From contig CAYVSX010000001.1 in the NCBI GenBank assembly GCA_964454245.1, positions 7,379 to 71,378 on the forward strand: DNA of 64,000 bases, read 5' to 3'. The translations under genes were made by a program, and so were the position numbers. Shown piece by piece: positions 7,057 through 62,462 of this stretch. This stretch comes from an uncultured Candidatus Saccharibacteria bacterium (GTDB lineage Bacteria > Patescibacteriota > Saccharimonadia > Saccharimonadales > Saccharimonadaceae). Every line of letters begins with the position of its first letter. Position 1 is the first letter of the stretch. Under the pieces are notes generated by a model. The model was not told where the DNA came from and did no database searches. It saw only the letters and a program-made list of their open reading frames with translations.

Positions 7057-7482
7057 ATGTTTGATATAGATGATGACTTTTTAACCAGTATTGGCTACGA
7101 TGTCAGTGTGCTAACGCCAGAGCAGCGCCAGCAATATAGCGGCGAGATACAAGAAGAAATGAACCAGCGGCTATCGGAGCGCTTGGCTATGGAGCTGACT
7201 GAGGAGCAAGCTGCGGATATGCAAACGATTCAAGATAGCCATGAGCGGGCCGAACAGTGGCTATACGAATTTCATAGCGATTTTGCTAGCCGAGATGACT
7301 ATCAATCACTGGTACAGGCGCTGGGCGAGCTAGATGCCAAGCAATTTTACGCTACAGCGCTGTGGATGCAAGATGCCGTGCCGGGCTATGGGGTAATAGC
7401 CCAGGAATTGCTAAACGAGTACCAGGCTGAGCTAATAGAAAAGGCTAAATTGGTGGACACGGCACTGGGCGATGTGGCGTAA
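7057..7482 (+). CDS. DUF5663-like small acidic protein (divergent paralog 1)
   Basis: MFDIDDDFLTSIG...RLSERLAMELTEEQ...QWL aligns by eye with the next gene; AAGGGG RBS. Confidence 0.7.
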   Translation: MFDIDDDFLTSIGYDVSVLTPEQRQQYSGEIQEEMNQRLSERLAMELTEEQAADMQTIQDSHERAEQWLYEFHSDFASRDDYQSLVQALGELDAKQFYATALWMQDAVPGYGVIAQELLNEYQAELIEKAKLVDTALGDVA

Positions 7483-11420: not shown

Positions 11421-12077
11421 ATGTATTTTGAAAGCCGATCACATGCTGGGCAGGTACTGGCCGCCGAACTGTTAGAAAAGTACCGCTACGAGGATTGTGC
11501 GGTAGTGGCGCTTTCTGATGGTGGCGTATTGGTGGGCGAGCAAATTGCCGCTCAATTGCACTGCGTGCTTACCATGCTAGTTACCGAAACTATTGATGTG
11601 CCGGGCGAAAGCCTAAGCATGGGTGCGGTATCGCAGGCTGGCAACTTTACCTACAACAGCGAGTTTTCTACTGGCGAGATTGAAGAATATGCCAGCGAGT
11701 TCCATGGCTACCTAGATGACCAAAAGCGCCAGGCCTTTAGCCGCATTAACCGCCTAGTGGGCGATGGCGGTATCATTAGCCGCGATCTACTGCGCGAGCG
11801 GGTAATTATACTGGTGTCAGATGGCTTCACCGACGGCGCAATCATTAGCGTGGCGCTAGATTACCTAAAACCCATCCACACTAAAAAACTAGTGGTAGCC
11901 GCGCCTGTGGCTACCATCCCAGCCGTCGACCAGCTGCATGTAGTGGCCGACGAGCTACATATTTTAGATGTAAAAGAGAACTTTATGGGCACTGATCACT
12001 ACTTTAACGACAACAATGTGCCATCGCGTGAAGATTCGATAGCCAAAATTAACCAGATAATATTGAACTGGCAGTAG
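11421..12077 (+). CDS. Phosphoribosyltransferase-family protein
   Basis: F.SRSHAGQVLA start, VILVSDGFTDGA PRPP-loop variant, VVAAPV. Confidence 0.8.
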   Translation: MYFESRSHAGQVLAAELLEKYRYEDCAVVALSDGGVLVGEQIAAQLHCVLTMLVTETIDVPGESLSMGAVSQAGNFTYNSEFSTGEIEEYASEFHGYLDDQKRQAFSRINRLVGDGGIISRDLLRERVIILVSDGFTDGAIISVALDYLKPIHTKKLVVAAPVATIPAVDQLHVVADELHILDVKENFMGTDHYFNDNNVPSREDSIAKINQIILNWQ

Positions 12078-12155
12078 ACTCGCGCAGCTTGGCACATTTT
12101 GCTCGGTTTGCCTGCGGTGCTCATCAACCGCTGCGTAAGCAGCGGCTTTAAGGCC

Positions 12156-12256
12156 GGGTGAGAATTGCCCGGGGCAATTCGCAAGGAAACCTTCCCTTGA
12201 AAGCTATGCTTTCATAGGCGAAGTTTCGGGGTCGCGGGATGTGACGGTCCACCCCT
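12156..12256 (-). repeat. Structured ~100-nt dispersed element, copy A
   Basis: Reverse complement aligns with 61357-61454 (ccgaaacttc...gaag.tttccttgcgaa...ttctcaccc) with compensatory stem changes. Confidence 0.8.
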
Positions 12257-12368
12257 TGAGAGCTCGACTTATGTTGAGCTCGGGTTATATTAGGGCTTGC
12301 AAATGCTGGCGAGTAAATGTAGAATAAAAAGCAACAGTATATAAGGGAAGTGAACTAAAGGAATCATA

Positions 12369-18443: not shown

Positions 18444-19682
18444 ATGCAAGAACAATCTCGATATGCAGTCGGTATTGATGTCGGTACAACGACCGTTCGT
18501 TGTGTGGTGGGGCATGTCGATCCGGCGACCGGTACGCCCACTATAGTTGGCGTGGGGCAGGCGGCCAATAGCGGTATGCGCAAGGGTACAGTGGTTAATT
18601 TAACAGGCCCAGCCCAGGCTATAGATACCGCGCTGGGCGAAGCCGAGCGTATGAGCGGCTACGAAGTAAACGCTGCGGCCATTAGCATTAACGGCTCGCA
18701 CATACTTAGTACCAAGGCCGATGGCATGATAGCTGTGGGCATGGCCGACCACGAAATTAACCAAGAAGATCTGCACCGGCTAGAAGACGTGGCTACCACC
18801 GGCAAAGTGCCAGCAAACCGCGAAATTTTAGAAGTAGTACCATTTAGCTACATGCTAGATGGCCAGGGCGGCATAAAAGACCCAATTGGCATGACGGGCA
18901 CGCGCCTAGAAATTAACGCCAATGTGGTATCGGCCATGGGTCCATACGTAACCAACCTGCAAAAAACCAGCGAAATGGCGACTGTTGCGCCCAACGCCAC
19001 CGTGCCATCGGTAATTGCCGCCGCCAAGGCGGTGCTAAGTGAGGCGCAAATAGAAAGCGGCGTGGCGGTAATAGATTTTGGCGGGGCTACCACCAGTGTA
19101 GCGGTGTTTGAAGAAGGTGATTTGCAATATGTGGGCGTGGTGCCAGTGGGTGGCGCTAACATCACCAACGACCTAGCAATTGGCCTAAAAACCGACCCCG
19201 AAATTGCCGAAAAGGTAAAATTGCAGCATGGCAGCGCCGTGGCACGCGGTGGCAACGAGGGCGTGAGTGTAAAGCAAGATAAAGATGTGCTAACATTTAA
19301 CACCGAAGAAATCGACGAAATTATAGAGGCAAGGCTCGAAGAAATTTTCGATGCCGTAAATAAAGAGCTAAAAAAAGCTGGCCGCGCTGGGCGATTGCCT
19401 AGCGGTGTGGTGCTGGTGGGCGGTAGCGCCAACCTAAAGGGCATTGCCGAATTTGCCAAAAACCACTTGGGTGTAGCGGCACGTGTGGGCAAAGCCACTG
19501 GCTTTGGTGGCGTGGCTGACGATATAGACAAGCCACAATACGCTACGGCAGTGGGCCTAATGCTAATAGATGCCGAAAGCGCCGGCCCAGCCGCTGGCGG
19601 CAAGGGCAAAAAGCCACAGGGTGATGGCTTGAAGCGGGCTGGTGGGTTTTTGAAGAGTATTTTTGGTAAGCTGAAGGCTTAA
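18444..19682 (+). CDS. ftsA: Cell division protein FtsA
   Basis: GIDVGTT, IDFGGATT, VLVGGSANL; precedes ftsZ. Confidence 0.95.
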   Translation: MQEQSRYAVGIDVGTTTVRCVVGHVDPATGTPTIVGVGQAANSGMRKGTVVNLTGPAQAIDTALGEAERMSGYEVNAAAISINGSHILSTKADGMIAVGMADHEINQEDLHRLEDVATTGKVPANREILEVVPFSYMLDGQGGIKDPIGMTGTRLEINANVVSAMGPYVTNLQKTSEMATVAPNATVPSVIAAAKAVLSEAQIESGVAVIDFGGATTSVAVFEEGDLQYVGVVPVGGANITNDLAIGLKTDPEIAEKVKLQHGSAVARGGNEGVSVKQDKDVLTFNTEEIDEIIEARLEEIFDAVNKELKKAGRAGRLPSGVVLVGGSANLKGIAEFAKNHLGVAARVGKATGFGGVADDIDKPQYATAVGLMLIDAESAGPAAGGKGKKPQGDGLKRAGGFLKSIFGKLKA

Positions 19683-19779
19683 CAAATCTTTTATCCATAT
19701 AATGACATCTACACCCGTAGCGTGGTACAATGGGTACAAGATAGTTATTCAGCGCGAATAAAGGGGAGTGATAGGACTA

Positions 19780-20991
19780 ATGCCAGAAGTAAAACCAAGT
19801 GAAATCCAAAGCTTTGCCAGCATTAAAGTTGTTGGTGTTGGTGGGGCGGGCGGCTCGGCGGTAAACCGCATGAAAGATGCCGGCCTAGTGGGCGTGCAAT
19901 TTATTGCCATGAACACCGATGCCCAGGCATTGCATAATTCTAAGGCCGATATTAAAATCCACCTGGGCCACAACACCACTAACGGCCTTGGTGCTGGCGC
20001 TGACCCATCGGTGGGCGAGGCTGCTGCCCGCGAATCGATAGATGAAATCCGCGATGCAATTGACGGCGCTGACATGGTGTTTGTAACCATTGGTGCTGGC
20101 GGTGGCACCGGTAGTGGTGCTGGTCACGTGGTAGCCGAAGTCGCCCGTGACCTAGGTATTTTGTGCGTAGGCGTAGCCACCAAGCCATTTAGTTTTGAGG
20201 GCGAAAAACGCCGCACCAACGCCGAGTGGGCCGTTGCCCAGCTGGGTCGCCAGGTAGATACGCTCATCACCATCCCGAACGATCGCTTGTTACACACCAT
20301 CGATCGCCGCACGCCACTGCTAGAAACCTTTAAAATCGCCGATGATGTATTGCGCCAAGGCGTGCAGGGCATTAGTGAACTAATTACCGAGCACGGCCTG
20401 ATTAACCTAGACTTTGCCGACGTAAAGGCGATTATGAGCAACGCCGGTAGCGCCCTAATGGGCATTGGCCGCGCTAGTGGTGACGACCGTGCTGCCCAAG
20501 CTGCACAGCAGGCGATTGAATCACCGCTGATCGAAGTGTCGATAGACGGCGCTAAGGGCGTACTATTTAACGTTACTGGCGGCTACGACATGAGCATGAG
20601 TGAAATTCAGGAGGCGGCCGAAATCATTACCAGCGCTGTTAGCCCTGATGCCAACATCATATTTGGTGCCACGCTTAAGCCCGAGCTGGAAGATGAACTG
20701 ATTATTACTGTGATTGCCACTGGCTTTGACAGCGCATACTTTCACCAGCAGGCGGCCGAGCTAGAGCGCCCTGGCAACACGCCAGCGGCCGACGTGGAGC
20801 CAGCCACAGGTGACGATATCGACAAAGCAGTAGACGATGTGGATATGAACCTAGACCAAACCAACGCGGCCGAGCACTTTGCGGCTGAGCCATCGAACGA
20901 CATGTGGAACCAGCCCACCGAGGAAGAGGAAGACGACGACACGCCAGCCTTTTTGCGCCGCCGCAAGAAAAAACAATCAGACGAATCCTAA
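19780..20991 (+). CDS. ftsZ: Cell division protein FtsZ
   Basis: [24 protein letters not shown]-terminal DTPAFLRR. Confidence 0.97.
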
Positions 20992-30789: not shown

Positions 30790-31692
30790 ATGCCAGCCAA
30801 ACAAACACGCAAAACACCAGTGGCAAATAGCTTAAAAAAGCGCGTGCATAAACGCGTTAAATTAGCTGTGGTGCCACATAAGGCCAATCAGTTTCGCCCG
30901 CATGCGGTTAGCCGCTATGGCATTGCTATAATAGTGGCCTTTGTGTTGCTGGCGCAAGGGATGTACAACAGCATCACCAGCGGCAACATACTAGGCACCG
31001 AGGCACAAATTACCAGTAGCGGGCTGCTGCAGGCCACTAACGATGCGCGTAAAGCCGATGGCGAGCAGCCGCTAACTATAAATGCTAAATTATCTGATGC
31101 CGCCAACCGCAAAGTACATAATATGTTTGATCAGCAATATTGGGCGCACACCGCACCCGATGGCACAACGCCGTGGCATTGGTTTGGTGAGGTAGGCTAT
31201 GTGTATGCCGATGCCGGTGAAAACCTGGCCAAAAACTTTACCACCGACGACAGCACGGTGGCGGCCTGGCTGGCATCGCCCACCCACCGCGCCAATGTGC
31301 TAAAGCCACAGTATACCGAAGTTGGCTTTGCCGTGATGAGCGGCACGCTAGGCGGCAAGCCCACCACGCTGATAGTGGCGCTGTATGGCAAGCCCGATAC
31401 CGCCATGGTGCAAGGCGCAGCTAGTACGCAAAGTTCGGATATTAACATGCCGGTAAGTGTGATGGCGCAAATTGGCCTGGGATTGCAGGCGCTCACACCG
31501 GCCGCTATTGCTAGTATAGTGGTGCTGGCTGTGGCCGCCAACATCGCCTTTATAGCCCATATGTACCGCCGCAAGCTACCGCTGGCATTACGCCGTAGCT
31601 GGTACCGCCACCACGGCATGTACAAGGCAATCGGTTTTACCGGCCTGGCAATTGTGATTGTGTTTGCTTATGGCGGGGTGGGGCAGATTTAA
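30790..31692 (+). CDS. CAP (SCP) domain membrane protein
   Basis: YWAH, AGENLA, WLASPTHRANVL; N- and C-terminal TM helices. Confidence 0.9.
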   Translation: MPAKQTRKTPVANSLKKRVHKRVKLAVVPHKANQFRPHAVSRYGIAIIVAFVLLAQGMYNSITSGNILGTEAQITSSGLLQATNDARKADGEQPLTINAKLSDAANRKVHNMFDQQYWAHTAPDGTTPWHWFGEVGYVYADAGENLAKNFTTDDSTVAAWLASPTHRANVLKPQYTEVGFAVMSGTLGGKPTTLIVALYGKPDTAMVQGAASTQSSDINMPVSVMAQIGLGLQALTPAAIASIVVLAVAANIAFIAHMYRRKLPLALRRSWYRHHGMYKAIGFTGLAIVIVFAYGGVGQI

Positions 31693-31693
31693 A

Positions 31694-32362
31694 CTTGTTC
31701 TTTTAAGTAAAAGAACCAAAACTCTTCTCTTTTTCGATAAGAGAAGCAGAAGATCGACTTGGGATATCCCCCTCACGCCCATAACTAATATCTAGGCAGC
31801 CATAGGTCAAAAAAGGACTCCCGTTGGTCGGCCCACAACAATATCTCTAATGTTGGTTGTGGGCAGACTTTTTTGAATTACTCCTATGCCCACCTAGCTT
31901 ACTTATGAGGTTCGGCGGCTCCCAAGACCCATCAACTGTATCGGCAAAGCCGATAAATTATCTACTGGATGCTGAAATAAATTCAGCATGACAATGCGTT
32001 AATTAAAGGCTACTTTACTCCGTTGTCATGCTGAATTTATTTCAGTATCCAGTAAAAAATAATCAAAATGACCGTGCCTAATAGCCACTAACCCTTCCGC
32101 CCGGAATAACTCAAAAAACTCTGTTCACAACCATCATTAGAGATATTGTTGTGAACCGATCCCCCTTGTGGGGTCGTTGTTTTTTGACCGGGTGGGAGCA
32201 GGGGGTGCTAAACCCAGTGCTAATGCACTTTGGTTTATCCTTCGGGCGATCTTTTGCTTCTTTTATCGCAAAAAAGAAGATTCTTAGCTTCTTTCTTTTA
32301 AAGAAAGAAGTCGCTGGTTCTGCGAAAGAGAACATTATTTTGTTTCTTTTGAAAAAAGAAAC
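31694..32362. repeat. Nested inverted-repeat intergenic structure (MITE/REPIN-like)
   Basis: Outer homologous inverted copies at 31694-31880 and 32106-32362; inner 34-bp inverted repeat at 31963-31996 / 32021-32054 (32/34 match). Confidence 0.8.
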
Positions 32363-32465
32363 ACATATAAATAACAGGGGTTAAAAGGGGAGTATCAGAA
32401 TACCCTTGACTTTTTAACACGTTTGTGCTTAAATAGAACAGTAAACAAATTTACACACAAAAACT

Positions 32466-32702
32466 ATGCTACATTTAAAAACCCACAAATTTACCTTCCC
32501 GCGCAGCAACACGGCGGCGCTGCATTTAAGCCCGGTGGTTAGCGATGTCGACGAATTGATACAGGCCATAGAGGCCGATAACGATGTTTGGCAGCTAGAT
32601 GCCGTGCCCGATACCAACGCCCTAGACCAGTTTTGGAGTGGCGTGGAAGACGATATAAAGCACGACCCTAGTTGGTTTACCTTTGCAGCCGACGACGAGT
32701 AA
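32466..32702 (+). CDS. Small acidic hypothetical protein
   Basis: 78-aa ORF ending DPSWFTFAADDE; TTGACT promoter-like sequence upstream. Confidence 0.65.
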   Translation: MLHLKTHKFTFPRSNTAALHLSPVVSDVDELIQAIEADNDVWQLDAVPDTNALDQFWSGVEDDIKHDPSWFTFAADDE

Positions 32703-32725
32703 ACCCGGCGTGCTAAAATAGTACT

Positions 32726-33550
32726 ATGACTGTAACTAAAGCAATTATTCCCGTAGCAGGCTGGGGTACCCGCATGCTACCAATTACTAAAGCGATAGAG
32801 AAGTGCATGTTGCCGATAGGCAACCGTCCGGTAATTGATTTTGTAGTGCAAGACATTATAAAGGCTGGCATAAAAGATATTTATTTTGTAGTGGGCGAGC
32901 AAAGCCAGCAACTACAAAGTTACTATCGCAGCAATATTCCGCTAAACGATTACTTAAAACGTACCGGCAAGAGCGACATGCTGCCACTAGTGGCGCCGCT
33001 AAAAGGTGTAAACATTCACTTTATAACCCAGCCTAGCACTGGTGGTTATGGAACTAGTGTACCAGTAGGGATGTGTAGTGAGTTCCTCGATGATGATGAA
33101 TCAGCTTTAGTGATGTCTGGTGATCAATTTTTTCATCGTAAAGATGATGGTTCGAACACTACTGACTTGCTGGAACTTGTGGCTCGCGATGGTGCTGAGG
33201 CTGGTATGTTTGGCGTGCCAATGCCACAAGATAATATAGATAGCAGTATTGAGGTGGATGATCAGCACCACTTCGTAAGTGTGATAGAGAAGCCAGCACC
33301 AGGCGAAGCGCCAACTAACCTGCAAAATGCCAGTTTTTACCTGCTGCCCAAAGCGGTTTTTGAGCTAGCGCGTACCTTGCCGGCCAACCCACGCCGTGGC
33401 GAATACGAACTAACCGATGCCTTAAACGCCTATGTGGCCGATGGCGGTAAAATAGCCGTAGGCGCGGTAAAGGGTGAGTACATGGAATGCGGCAGTGTAA
33501 GTGGTTGGCTGCAATCCAACAATCGCATACTAACTGGTGTTGTAAAATAA
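32726..33550 (+). CDS. Sugar-phosphate nucleotidyltransferase (GalU-like)
   Basis: KAIIPVAGWGTRMLPITKAIEKCMLPI, EKP, EYELTDA. Confidence 0.88.
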   Translation: MTVTKAIIPVAGWGTRMLPITKAIEKCMLPIGNRPVIDFVVQDIIKAGIKDIYFVVGEQSQQLQSYYRSNIPLNDYLKRTGKSDMLPLVAPLKGVNIHFITQPSTGGYGTSVPVGMCSEFLDDDESALVMSGDQFFHRKDDGSNTTDLLELVARDGAEAGMFGVPMPQDNIDSSIEVDDQHHFVSVIEKPAPGEAPTNLQNASFYLLPKAVFELARTLPANPRRGEYELTDALNAYVADGGKIAVGAVKGEYMECGSVSGWLQSNNRILTGVVK

Positions 33551-34761: not shown

Positions 34762-35638
34762 AAAAACTGGGCTAGGGCGGAGCTTTGCCTCGCTAATACC
34801 AACCGATGTGCTGGACGAATCGTTTGACCCAACGGCCGAGCAAGACGGCCACGTGAGCGACCTGCGCCAAATTAAATTAACCGAAATTGTACCCGACCCC
34901 GATCAGCCGCGCCGGCAATTTGACGATGGTTCGCTAGACGAATTGGCGACATCGATAAAAGAGCACGGCGTGATACAGCCAATTGTGGTGACGCCACACA
35001 AGGGCGGCTACATGATTGTGGCTGGCGAGCGCCGCTACCGTGCCACCGAGCGGGCTGGGCTAGATAAAATCCCGGCGCTGGTGCGTACGCTAAGCGACCA
35101 ACACAAGTTAGAGGTCAGCCTGATAGAAAATCTGCAACGCCGCGACCTAAACCCACTAGAAACCGCCACGGCCTACCTAAAGTTGCGCGACCAATTTAAC
35201 CTAACGCTTGATGAAATTGGCGATAGGGTAGGTGGGCGTTCGATGGCTAGCATCAGCAACACTTTGCGCTTACTGCGCCTACCAGCGGCGGCGCGCGAGG
35301 CGCTGGCGGCAGGGCAAATCCGCGAGGGGCAAATTCGCCCACTAATTAACCTAGACGCCGAAATTATAGAGGCGGTACTACCCCGGATGATTAAAGAAGG
35401 CTGGAGTGCCCGCACCGCCGAAGATTATGCCGCGCGCGTAAAGCGGGGCGATGTGGTAAAACCGGCTAAGCAACCGGTGGTGGTGCCAACCACTCATGAG
35501 CAATATGGCGTAAAGCTAGCCAAGCGGCTAAACACTGCCGTGCGTGTAAAAGAAACTGCCAAGGGCGCCGGGCAGATTGTGATTAGTTATAAGACCGCTG
35601 AAGAATTTGAAAGACTAGCTAAACTACTAGAAAATTAG
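34751..35638 (+). CDS. parB: ParB/Spo0J partitioning protein
   Basis: PDQPRR, GVIQP, AGERRYRA, ENLQRRDLNP. Confidence 0.95.
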   Translation: MSAKKTGLGRSFASLIPTDVLDESFDPTAEQDGHVSDLRQIKLTEIVPDPDQPRRQFDDGSLDELATSIKEHGVIQPIVVTPHKGGYMIVAGERRYRATERAGLDKIPALVRTLSDQHKLEVSLIENLQRRDLNPLETATAYLKLRDQFNLTLDEIGDRVGGRSMASISNTLRLLRLPAAAREALAAGQIREGQIRPLINLDAEIIEAVLPRMIKEGWSARTAEDYAARVKRGDVVKPAKQPVVVPTTHEQYGVKLAKRLNTAVRVKETAKGAGQIVISYKTAEEFERLAKLLEN

Positions 35639-35696
35639 CTGTATCGGCAGAGCCGATAATTACTCGACTGGATCCCGCAACAAGTATGGGATGACG
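35639..35696. repeat. Composite hairpin + CGTC-type REP repeat
   Basis: ctgtatcggcagagccgataa-8 nt-ctggatcccgcaacaagtatgggatgacg; homologous to 31936-31992. Confidence 0.75.
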
Positions 35697-43296: not shown

Positions 43297-43417
43297 AATA
43301 AGCCTAGTATACCACAAGCGAAAATAGGGAAGGATGCTATAAATTAGCATAATGCTATTGACTTTTTAGCAACTTTTTGCTACTATAATGAATAGTAATA
43401 AAAGTCAAAAACAAACA

Positions 43418-59978: not shown

Positions 59979-61358
59979 ATGAAAATAACCGACACCATCC
60001 GAAGAGCTGGCCGGAGCCTCCGCCAAGCTAAAGCGCGCACGTTACTTACTAGTCTGGCAATTGCGGTGGGCGGGTTTACGCTTACGCTGGCACTCGCGGC
60101 TGGAGCCGGTTCGCGCCAATACGCCGATAAGATTATCTCTAGCAATATCGACCCGCAAATGCTGATGGTGGTGAAGGATAAAACGTTATTTGGTGATACT
60201 GGCTCGGGAGCGACTAATCTTGGGGGCGGCTTACGCGAATATTCTGAAACAGCCACATCGTATGCTGGTATGACATTGAAAGCCTTATCCAGTGATGACC
60301 TGAAAATTATCGAGAATAACCCTAATATTGAAAAGGTCACACCCACTTATTTGGTTAATGCTCAATATGTTGCCTTTGCTGCTAAATCTGATAAAAAATA
60401 TACCACCGACATCACGGTATTTGATACGTCGGTTCGGCCCGAAATCATTGCTGGTAGCCTGCCCGGCGATAAGCGGCAAATTGCCGATGACGAAGTGGTC
60501 GTGCCAGAGGCATTTCTATCGACATTGGGCGTGGGCGATGCACAAAAATTTGTCGGTACTAATGTAACTGTACGTCTTGCCAAGGCACCGGCGCAGTTAA
60601 GCGAGCAGCAAGTGCAAGAGATTATTGCCAAAGAGGGCATGGCGGGACTAGAAAAGTACACTAAGCCCGAAACACGCGATGTTACACTGAAGGTCCGTGC
60701 CGTCAGCAAGCAGTCCGTTACATCGCTGAGTGCCAGTAGTGCGCTATTCATTGCTGAAAACACCGCGCGCGATTTATCAGATTATCTTACCAAAGGCACC
60801 AGCCAATATCGCAGCTACATCACGGTTATGGCACTGGTAAAGCAGGGGGTAGACCCAGCACACGTTAAAGCGCAGCTGGCCGACAAAGAGATTTATGCCA
60901 TGACCGCCAAAGATGTGCAGGGTATGCTGTTTACCATCGTAAACCTTATTCAGGGTATTGTGATTGGTTTTGGCGTGTTAGCACTTATTGCGAGTATTTT
61001 TGGTATCATCAACACCCAGTACATTAGCGTACTAGAGCGTACGCAGCAAATCGGCCTCATGAAAGCTCTTGGCATGCGCGGGCGCGATGTTAGCAAGCTG
61101 TTCCGCTACGAAGCCGCCTGGATAGGCTTTTTGGGCGGCGTGATTGGCGCTGTGCTAGCTTGGGGTGCAGGAACGGCGCTGAACCCTTGGATTACCGATA
61201 CAATCGGCCTTGGTGAAGGGAACTATTTGTTACTCTATCAACCCTTGCCAATCGCGATATTGATTACGACACTTGTTATTGTCGCCATTGCTGCTGGTTA
61301 CTTCCCGGCACGTAAAGCCGCCAAGCTAGATCCGATCGAAGCCTTACGAACTGAGTAG
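59979..61358 (+). CDS. ABC transporter permease (MacB/FtsX family)
   Basis: RTLLTSLAI, large extracellular domain, SVLERTQQIGLMKALG, PARKAAKLDPIEALR. Confidence 0.92.
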   Translation: MKITDTIRRAGRSLRQAKARTLLTSLAIAVGGFTLTLALAAGAGSRQYADKIISSNIDPQMLMVVKDKTLFGDTGSGATNLGGGLREYSETATSYAGMTLKALSSDDLKIIENNPNIEKVTPTYLVNAQYVAFAAKSDKKYTTDITVFDTSVRPEIIAGSLPGDKRQIADDEVVVPEAFLSTLGVGDAQKFVGTNVTVRLAKAPAQLSEQQVQEIIAKEGMAGLEKYTKPETRDVTLKVRAVSKQSVTSLSASSALFIAENTARDLSDYLTKGTSQYRSYITVMALVKQGVDPAHVKAQLADKEIYAMTAKDVQGMLFTIVNLIQGIVIGFGVLALIASIFGIINTQYISVLERTQQIGLMKALGMRGRDVSKLFRYEAAWIGFLGGVIGAVLAWGAGTALNPWITDTIGLGEGNYLLLYQPLPIAILITTLVIVAIAAGYFPARKAAKLDPIEALRTE

Positions 61359-61454
61359 GGGCTCCGCCACGTTCCGCGGCTCCGAAACTTCACGATTGAA
61401 AACAAGTTTTCATCGGAAGATTTCCTTGCGAACAGCCACCGGCTGTTCTCACCC
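61357..61454 (+). repeat. Structured ~100-nt dispersed element, copy B
   Basis: Homologous to the reverse complement of 12156-12256; followed by a hairpin at 61458-61489. Confidence 0.8.
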
Positions 61455-61530
61455 TCCAATCGTTTGCGGAATAAATCCGCCAAACGATTTCCACCCCGCT
61501 AAAGCTCGGCTAACGCCTCGTTAGTAGGGG

Positions 61531-62388
61531 CTATTTGCCGTATTGCTGGCTGTAAAGTTCGCGTACCAGCTTAGTGAAGTCGGCAGCATAATCATCTGAC
61601 ACGCCTAAAATATCAGCAACCTTGCCGGCATTATAATTTTGCAGCACAAGCGTTTTGCTGCGTGGGCGAATACCTAGCTCGCGTAGGGCTAGCGCACCCA
61701 CCACCTTTTTCATCGAAAATGGGTCTGGCTGCAGTAAAGATATTTCGGTGTTGGCACGGGCGGTAGTGTCTAGCAAGCTGGCAATTTTGCCAAAGCCACC
61801 ACGCCAATCTTCAGTGATTGCGCCACCAGTCGGGAATATGGCTACAGCGCCGCCATCGGCTACCGTGTTTGCGGCATTGTTTAAGGCATCGCTATTTATT
61901 TGGCGCAGTGTATCCACTGGCAGGTTAAATGCCCCGGGGAACTTGTGCTTATAGTAATAGGCGTGCGGGTTTTCAGCCAGTGTTGGCTGGTATTGGTCAG
62001 ATAAGCCAGTGTGCATGACTGGTATGATGCTATCGACGCCGGCGGGGCCGGAATCTTGCATTAGCCGCCCAGCAAACGAATCGGGCTGGGCGATAACGCG
62101 CATCGAATCACGCCCGGCCTTGCTGGCAAGGGCCTGTACTAGTAATGGTTCGATCCTTTGGCTATGGTCGCCGGCGAGTAGTAGGCCGCCATTTGTAGAG
62201 GGCAAATCGCCTTCGATTTCAACCTTTATGCCACTGTCCTCTAGTGTAGACGTAACCGCATCGGCAAAGCACATAGTTTCAGCAGCGCGGCCCAACCGCT
62301 TAGCGAACCCAGGGGTGAAGCTAAAGGGTAGGTGGAGTTGATCGCGATTGTATGGTGGTTGCTCGCGGCTGGATGTTTGTTTTTTCAT
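61531..62388 (-). CDS. PlsC/GPAT-like acyltransferase (divergent)
   Basis: LLLAGDHSQRIE (HX4E instead of HX4D) and AIFPTG (instead of FPEG). Confidence 0.6.
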   Translation of the reverse strand: MKKQTSSREQPPYNRDQLHLPFSFTPGFAKRLGRAAETMCFADAVTSTLEDSGIKVEIEGDLPSTNGGLLLAGDHSQRIEPLLVQALASKAGRDSMRVIAQPDSFAGRLMQDSGPAGVDSIIPVMHTGLSDQYQPTLAENPHAYYYKHKFPGAFNLPVDTLRQINSDALNNAANTVADGGAVAIFPTGGAITEDWRGGFGKIASLLDTTARANTEISLLQPDPFSMKKVVGALALRELGIRPRSKTLVLQNYNAGKVADILGVSDDYAADFTKLVRELYSQQYGK

Positions 62389-62462
62389 GTTTACTCTTCT
62401 ATTATAGCAAATTTATGCAAAAAAGTCAATAGCGGCCGGGGCAGATATGATATAATGATGAC

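Follow-up and report, generated by a model that had tools for sequence, protein, structure and literature searches.

Two stretches of about 90 bases in the analysed window, 64,000 nucleotides of a Candidatus Saccharibacteria contig, are copies of a hairpin-rich miniature mobile element, hereafter named E, which is apparently undescribed so far, no description of it having been found in full-text searches of the literature. E is probably a mobile DNA element of Candidatus Saccharibacteria, non-autonomous and dependent on its structure, which is served in trans by an enzyme whose gene is not linked to it. Its defining feature, which goes beyond what a first-pass annotation of the window had noticed, is that it sits in the loops of tRNA genes, mostly in the T-loop of partial tRNA copies. 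The genomes of Saccharibacteria are tiny and streamlined, with a size of about 1 Mb, and the lineage is thought to be poor in mobile DNA.

Identification and limits of the two window copies

The two copies, A and B, share the 18-mer GGAAGRTTTCCTTGCGAA, which occurs twice in the window compared to 0.05 occurrences expected by chance, and they form the second-longest inverted repeat pair of the window according to a repeat finder. A covariance model of 88 positions and 33 pairs (R1), built on 94 family members, was run over the window with filters off and returned exactly two copies, the next best score in the 64 kb being 12 bits. The first-pass annotation had placed two related stretches here, and both are recovered by R1 (98 and 106 bits); the limits it gave, 12156-12256 and 61357-61454, were roughly right, except that their outer bases are target-derived and the cores are shorter. 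It had also placed both copies just after the 3' end of a gene, among flanking hairpins, which holds once it is read on the folding strand, each copy being preceded there by a hairpin and, about 77 nt upstream, by the end of a same-strand gene. No tRNA gene is near either copy, and none was found within the 64-kb window. The cores and the genes that precede them are the following.

Positions 12157-12245, + strand: core of copy A, matched over its full length by R1 (98.2 bits, E-value 2.4e-21) and aligned with 93 homologues (alignment A4).
Positions 61366-61453, - strand: core of copy B, matched by R1 (105.8 bits, E-value 3.8e-23).
Positions 11421-12077, + strand: gene upstream of copy A on the folding strand.
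Positions 61531-62388, - strand: gene upstream of copy B on the folding strand.

The conserved core of E measures about 88 nt. In copy A it is made, in order, of GGTGAGAA, a first hairpin (Pa), UUCGCAAG, a long hairpin (Pb, GAAAC..GUUUC), GGG and a last hairpin (Pc). The element therefore begins with GGTGAGAA... and ends with ...GTGAC, and these ends are not inverted repeats of each other. The whole window gave no match to Rfam 15 at gathering thresholds, in agreement with the earlier statement that the element belongs to no recognised RNA family, and a search around copy A with E-values up to 10 gave chance-level scores only (RNaseP_arch with 10.3 bits for a threshold of 84, P5 with 14.5 bits for a threshold of 60). 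A tmRNA or a tRNA cloverleaf with acceptor stem was rejected, the 5' strand of the acceptor being missing and Rfam giving no match. The core of a hammerhead or hairpin ribozyme was rejected as well, on account of unlike core motifs and, again, no Rfam match.

Covariation and strand preference of the fold

In an alignment of 100 copies on the tRNA-sense strand (A2), covariation supports three hairpins which are joined by invariant linkers.

Hairpin Pa: 5 variable pairs stacked on 5 invariant pairs.
Hairpin Pb: 17 pairs.
Hairpin Pc: 7 pairs, closing a GAA triloop.

Within these hairpins 97.3% of the A2 cells are paired, compared to about 45% in controls with slid partners, and compensatory changes were found at 22 of 34 pairs (523 cells versus about 45 in the slid controls). 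Selection on the fold, which had been proposed from the two window copies, is thereby strongly supported by covariation over about 100 copies. The covariation described for the ttgcc/ggcaa versus cagcc/ggctg hairpin and for the long cct..tgaaagc hairpin was upheld across about 100 homologues. The stem ggggt/acccc, which had been taken for the first one, joins bases of the element to bases of the flank and is not a hairpin of E; the true third hairpin is GTCGC-N-GAA-N-GTGAC, on the opposite strand to that of the first-pass annotation. The strand assigned there was wrong, as the reverse complement folds best (+ for A, - for B).

The conserved G.U pair of Pc is G.U in 79 of 94 copies (83 G.U, 13 G-C and 3 A-U in A2), and overall 111 G.U are seen versus 18 A.C. 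With DNA parameters the tRNA-sense strand is predicted to be the more stable of the two strands in all 94 copies, with RNA parameters in 75 of 94. Several linker motifs are 100% conserved, among them TTTCG, whose presence had not been forced by the search pattern. It is solely from the strand asymmetry of the fold that we infer single-stranded DNA as the putative active form, and the G.U pairs and fully conserved linkers would be just as much in keeping with an RNA.

Distribution of E

A census of one genome per species with the pattern TTTCCTTGCGAA-N(9-25)-TTCTCACC gave at least 118 loci. About 18 of these at least 118 loci were chance matches, for example in pyruvate-phosphate-dikinase-like coding sequence in Planctomycetes, and once the chance matches in coding sequence had been taken out, 98 copies were left among the matches listed, or 100 with the window copies. 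The family thus counts at least about 100 true copies at one genome per species. Nearly all hosts among the matches listed are Candidatus Saccharibacteria / Saccharimonadia MAGs, often with several copies per assembly, and R1 applied to 100 loci gave 117 matches, with a maximum of six in one 8-kb locus (L096). Two E-bearing contigs, L005 and L033, carry Parcubacteria and Burkholderiaceae MAG labels and are probably mis-binned Saccharibacteria contigs, a true spread outside the phylum being the less likely reading. One 17-mer match in viral contigs was discarded as a chance match, lying within a phage portal gene with the other conserved blocks missing.

In wastewater and sludge metagenomes, contig depth amounts to 240-295 over the element region of copy A compared to about 20 or less in its flanks, and many different sequences meet copy A at 12156 and at about 12245. 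High depth and many joins at the edges are together the pattern of a dispersed repeat.

Insertion of E in tRNA gene loops

The 3' flank of E is the remainder of a T-loop in 81 of 95 copies among the matches listed, and the T-stem is kept (at least 4 of 5 pairs) in 66 of the 81 T-loop-flanked copies. The arrangement can be read at locus L031, where a complete tRNA-Gln and its terminator are followed, about 75 nt further, by a second, partial copy of the same tRNA, in which the variable loop, the T-stem 5' strand and T54 precede E while TCGAAT, the T-stem 3' strand, the acceptor 3' strand and CCA come after it. The usual position of E is between T54 and T55/C56 of the T-loop; in every case the GG on the 5' side of the loop comes immediately before it, one or two bases of the loop have been replaced, and the stem of the target is predicted to form a four-way junction with the three hairpins of E. 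Each interrupted tRNA copy lacks either its 5' two-thirds or its 3' acceptor strand and is the neighbour of an intact gene for that tRNA.

Two classes of tRNA-linked copies were distinguished among the matches listed. In class 1 (59 of 100 copies) an intact same-strand tRNA ends 56-92 nt upstream of E, and the spacer contains a terminator hairpin, a piece made of the local T-loop, T-stem and variable region in inverted orientation, and finally the variable region with the T-stem 5' strand in direct orientation. In class 2 (12 of 100 copies) an intact same-strand tRNA starts about 125-141 nt after the first base of E, which is preceded by tRNA positions 1-54, making up a complete 5' part, and followed by the T-loop remainder, a short inverted T-loop piece, a TATAAT-like box and then the intact gene. 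The orientation of E is that of the tRNA in 71 of these 71 tRNA-linked copies, and the tRNAs found at E loci have the specificities of at least 15 amino acids. The tRNA 3' end is present as a direct repeat at about 50 loci among the matches listed. The class-1 pseudo-copies are 5'-truncated with CCA kept, those of L014, L002 and L010 keeping the whole 3' trailer with its terminator, and the inverted T-arm pieces carry no E.

Insertions were also found in other tRNA loops.

tRNA-Pro(GGG) copies at L005, L027 and L033: insertions in the anticodon loop.
tRNA-Leu(TAG) copy at L096: insertion in the anticodon loop, with a second E in the T-loop.
tRNA-Ser copy at L119: insertion in the D-loop.

The remaining copies lie in other hairpins, including a terminator-like one. 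Tandem or nested copies occur at L096 (the six R1 matches), L088, L104, L105, L075 and L013.

The window loci compared with close relatives

Both window copies are missing in close relatives, so that the empty-site alleles which the first-pass annotation had suggested looking for do exist, and presence/absence polymorphism of E is directly observed. For copy B, two relatives (L120 and L121; FtsX-like permease 81% identical in the relative) share the flanks without E. The indel is a clean 84 nt (61369-61452, with an ambiguity of 1 nt), the flanks being otherwise identical in these relatives, and it consists of E alone. On the + strand the empty site reads GAGTAGGGGCTCCGCCCCTCCA, with the junction located between ...GAGTAGGGGCTCCGC and CCCTCCA.... 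This site is itself a hairpin on the folding strand, AGGGGC-GGA-GCCCCT, and E stands after GG in the 5' strand of that hairpin. The exact limit of copy B is ambiguous because Pc ends on three bases that the target has as well, and positions 61357-61368, which had been counted as part of the element, are also found in a relative without it.

Positions 61354-61368, - strand: target-derived flank of copy B, corresponding to the 3' half of the hairpin by comparison with the empty site, and overlapping the stop codon of the FtsX-like permease on the other strand.
Positions 61458-61489, - strand: hairpin just upstream of copy B on the folding strand, where tRNA-linked copies have their terminator hairpin; the hairpin found here in L120 differs in sequence.

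The interval from the FtsX-like permease to the seryl-tRNA synthetase (window 61359-62462) was compared in L120, L122, L123 and L124 and is a strain-variable slot, occupied by 17 nt in L123, by a 109-aa ORF in a 98%-identical relative, by a MFS transporter gene in L120, and by a 285-aa gene of unknown function together with E in the window.

At locus A, the flanking genes are separated by 77-102 nt in four relatives, whose neighbouring PRTase-like protein is 82-94% identical, compared to 291 nt in the window. Consequently, a block of about 200-215 nt is extra at this locus, which comprises 78 nt with a hairpin, E, a possible decayed 3' fragment of tRNA-Gln (TCCACCCC) and a terminator-like hairpin.

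Positions 12078-12156, + strand: left part of the block, with the hairpin CCGCTGC-GTAA-GCAGCGG (12128-12145) and the GG that precedes E.
Positions 12246-12292, + strand: right part of the block, with GGTCCACCCC and then the terminator-like hairpin at 12260-12281 (terminator scan and alignment with relatives).

When compared with TCCACCCCAGCCA in L031, GGTCCACCCC may be a decayed tRNA-Gln 3' fragment, and the block resembles a class-1 unit whose tRNA has been lost.

Probable mobility of E and proposed mechanism

Between genomes, the cores of E at the same tRNA type have a mean identity of 0.749, equal to that of any other pair (0.749). Vertical inheritance together with the tRNA locus was therefore rejected, copies at the same tRNA type being no closer than background. 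Within one genome the identity of the cores reaches 0.92-1.00 even at different tRNAs (Lys versus Leu 0.93, Ser versus Lys 0.92), and the flanks of such near-identical cores derive from the local tRNA. It follows that the core is copied between loci and that the tRNA-like flanks come from the target. Combined with the empty sites, with the nesting of copies and with the strictness of the target rule, this copying supports a mobile element. Of the two possibilities that had been raised at first, an ncRNA or a mobile element, the second, in a non-autonomous form, is therefore better supported, also by the multiple and tandem copies and by the occurrence of near-identical copies at unrelated tRNA loci.

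In the proposed mechanism, E would enter hairpin loops in one orientation, directly behind a GG on their 5' side. The cell would not survive such an event in an essential single-copy tRNA gene, and the visible copies would be those lying in partial, redundant tRNA copies, which adjoin an intact gene on its downstream (class 1) or upstream (class 2) side, the intact gene having a terminator or promoter of its own. By analogy with IS200/IS605-PATE, REP-RAYT and integron attC, which are established systems of single-strand recognition, the folded single strand of E could be the substrate of an unlinked enzyme acting in trans. No terminal inverted repeats and no target-site duplication were found in the ends of E or in the filled versus empty B site, and the junctions are imperfect, with one or two target bases usually lost. 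The partial tRNA duplications, including the inverted T-arm piece, are not explained by simple insertion.

Transcription and RNA-based alternatives

Transcription of E is weakly indicated. A 234-nt contig of a run annotated 'RNA?' (X8) spans only the A unit (12072-12305), at a depth of 2.2, with no strand information and a run type that was guessed; this run has just two contigs in 40 kb of the window, of which the A unit is one. The other, at window 19617-19812, spans intergenic sequence ahead of the gene at 19768, possibly a highly expressed leader or a small RNA. One metatranscriptome contig covers the E copy of another genome. Promoter and terminator scans around both window copies gave nothing above shuffled expectation that would make E a transcription unit of its own.

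An RNA intermediate is an unlikely vehicle for the movement of E. In such a route the transcript would enter exposed RNA loops, for instance by reverse splicing or ligation, then be copied into DNA and recombined beside the source gene, which is consistent with the strict co-orientation of E and tRNA (71 of 71 linked cases) and with the fact that all targets are hairpin loops in RNA, be it the T, anticodon and D loops of tRNAs or terminator hairpins. The 5'-truncated class-1 copies with CCA (L014, L002 and L010, with the terminator in addition) resemble truncated retro-copies of a primary transcript, and the G.U pairs, the invariant single-stranded linkers and the weak transcript evidence point in the same direction. 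However, there is no reverse transcriptase among the genes linked to E in the 8-kb loci and no match to an Rfam ribozyme or intron family, class 2 keeps the 5' part and loses the 3' end, which is the reverse of a 5' truncation, and the E-less inverted T-arm pieces are not accounted for by simple snap-back copying. The same strand is, moreover, favoured with DNA parameters too.

It appears equally doubtful that E is chiefly a functional small RNA, or a guide/bridge-like RNA of a mobile system, kept for its function with transposition being secondary. The very strong covariation and strand asymmetry, the invariant linker sequences, the 234-nt 'RNA?' contig limited to the A unit and the metatranscriptome contig over the copy of another genome would all be expected of such an RNA, but close relatives lack both window copies, the copy number is variable, pseudogene loops containing copies in nested or tandem arrangement, the scan for promoters upstream of E gave none, the hairpins are without large internal loops for guide sequences, and the RNA evidence consists of a contig with a depth of about 2 in a run of guessed type.

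That E is itself an RNA-level mobile element, possibly catalytic, which would enter the exposed loops of tRNAs and of other hairpins and return as DNA, leaving truncated tRNA retro-copies next to the parent gene, is regarded as quite improbable. If true, the reduced genomes of Saccharibacteria would harbour a bacterial retro-mobile 'loop intron', which would be of a new kind.

Genes linked to E and other T-loop inserts

ORFs of at least 120 aa were clustered across about 100 loci of 8 kb. No transposase, integrase or reverse transcriptase family recurs near E in these 8-kb loci, where only housekeeping families do. Likewise, the HUH, GIY-YIG or reverse transcriptase genes whose linkage had been suggested as a check by the first-pass annotation were not found in the 8-kb pieces around the copies.

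L044 contains a 4.2-kb island which encodes a 569-aa serine recombinase and is bounded by an intact tRNA-Gln on one side and an E-bearing tRNA-Gln 3' fragment on the other. The arrangement of L006 is similar; among the matches listed, an integrase between tRNA repeats is found only at these two loci. Members of this large serine recombinase family (about 520-570 aa) are present in L044 (1888-3597, - strand) and in L129-L135. The end of the recombinase gene always adjoins or overlaps a tRNA 3' end (Gln, Glu, Leu or Arg), indicating that these homologues are members of small tRNA-integrating islands in Saccharibacteria.

It is very unlikely, and largely refuted already, that E is immobile alone and represents the arm or attachment-site end of such islands, its short units being decayed islands. 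The recombinase island beside the E-bearing fragment of L044, the similar layout of L006 and the constant contact of recombinase homologues with a tRNA 3' end agree with this, but the recombinase is present at only 2-3 of about 100 E loci among the matches listed, the recombinase loci L135 and L133 have 3.6-5 kb of island sequence and no E, in L132 the tRNA stands between E and the recombinase, L006 has the look of an island placed upstream of a pre-existing E unit, the indel at copy B is limited to the element, and near-identical E copies have unrelated flanks which derive from the local tRNA. The large serine recombinase was thus rejected as an obligatory partner, E not being its regular companion, and the E-less islands and the layouts of L132 and L006 make the link appear as a shared target and not as a partnership.

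Unrelated short inserts were observed at the same T-loop junction in L017 (3571-3762), L097 (6592-6673), L113 (5790-5940) and L077 (2117-2249), and a variant insert with an E-like first hairpin (Pa) in L039 (3795-3985). These other T-loop inserts share the spacer layout of terminator, inverted T-arm and direct T-stem 5' strand, and they amount to at least two further element families besides E. The presence of several unrelated inserts at one junction implies that in these genomes the T-loop is a general insertion hot spot, of which E is the commonest occupant.

Implications and other features of the window

The finding of at least about 100 copies in species representatives suggests that E is an active small parasite or a tool in Saccharibacteria. 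Its target is an unusual one, E entering tRNA gene loops while an intact tRNA gene is always retained next to it. The element makes arrays of tRNA pseudo-fragments, which will mislead tRNA annotation, island prediction and MAG binning, and the covariance model R1 provides an immediate means of annotating the family. The loop and GG specificity and the strand-specific fold point to a structure-reading recombinase or to an RNA-based mechanism, either of which would be new biology and could yield a site-specific insertion tool for Saccharibacteria, a group that has become genetically tractable only recently.

Two further features of the window were observed. The region 31690-32730, about 1 kb long, contains no gene but has long inverted repeats nested in one another (57-nt arms at 31828-31884 and 32103-32159; 38-nt arms at 31957-31994 and 32023-32060) and no Rfam match; a 62-nt piece of it (31931-31992) recurs at 35634-35695 with 74% identity, and either a structured RNA of large size or a further palindromic element could lie here. 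The motif TTGACTTTTTA(A/G)C...N...TA(A/T)A(A/T)T is found upstream of several genes (7074-7101, 32393-32434, 43345-43387 and, inverted, 62388-62433) and is probably the strong promoter consensus of the organism.

Comparison with known systems

Among short dispersed repeats, MITEs and intergenic repeats such as Correia, ERIC, BOX and RUP resemble E in being non-coding, about 100 nt long and endowed with stable predicted folds, in being often co-transcribed with their neighbours and in their presence/absence polymorphism between strains. The target choice of E (tRNA loops) and its single orientation are far stricter, and a classical MITE was rejected in view of the missing terminal inverted repeats and target-site duplication.

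Fujishima and colleagues are said to have described, in 2010, archaeal tRNA introns that transpose and occupy non-canonical positions. As with E, related short inserts are found in the T, anticodon and D loops of different tRNAs, in the orientation of the tRNA, which implies movement, but here the host is bacterial, with no splicing endonuclease known. The tRNA copies that E interrupts are truncated pseudogenes with an intact gene next to them and so do not require splicing. A tRNA intron was rejected, E interrupting truncated copies only and no complete functional tRNA.

Integron attC and CTX-type Xer sites are, like E, recombination sites made of a folded single strand with covarying stems and strand specificity, and attC sites share with it the tandem stacking at one site and the usual location just after the 3' end of a gene. 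In contrast, E has neither RYYYAAC / GTTRRRY nor the one long imperfect hairpin with extrahelical bases, and its receiving site is a tRNA loop and not attI or dif. An attC site was rejected on the grounds of three separate hairpins, no R''/R' core sites and no integrase family recurring nearby in the 8-kb loci.

Close in form are the IS200/IS605-derived PATEs and the REP-BIME elements (RAYT, Y1 HUH), which are also short and non-coding, with hairpin structure conserved above sequence, without terminal inverted repeats or target duplication, and specific in strand and orientation. Both insert just 3' of a short specific sequence and are presumed to be mobilised in trans on single-stranded DNA. 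E differs in having three dissimilar hairpins and not matching left-end and right-end ones (its hairpins do lie at both ends, but are unlike each other), in its target, GG at the 5' side of a hairpin loop and chiefly of the tRNA T-loop, in the partial tRNA duplications alongside, in having no TnpA/RAYT gene found near it in the 8-kb loci, and in the usual loss of one or two target bases, which is untypical of those families.

The genomic setting recalls the islands targeting tRNA genes, for which Williams reportedly described, in Nucleic Acids Res in 2002, a preference for sublocations in the T-loop or the anticodon loop. There too a displaced 3'-end copy comes after the intact tRNA, the junction falling in the T-loop, and several occupants may stand in tandem at one tRNA locus; serine-recombinase islands occur at the same loci as E. 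The usual E unit, on the other hand, is only about 200 nt long and gene-free, E lies exactly at the loop junction and is also found away from any tRNA, and class-2 units displace the 5' part of the tRNA. Taken together, E acts most like the small, hairpin-defined elements that are moved as single strands (PATEs, REPs and attC), and it shares its genomic setting with tRNA-targeted islands.
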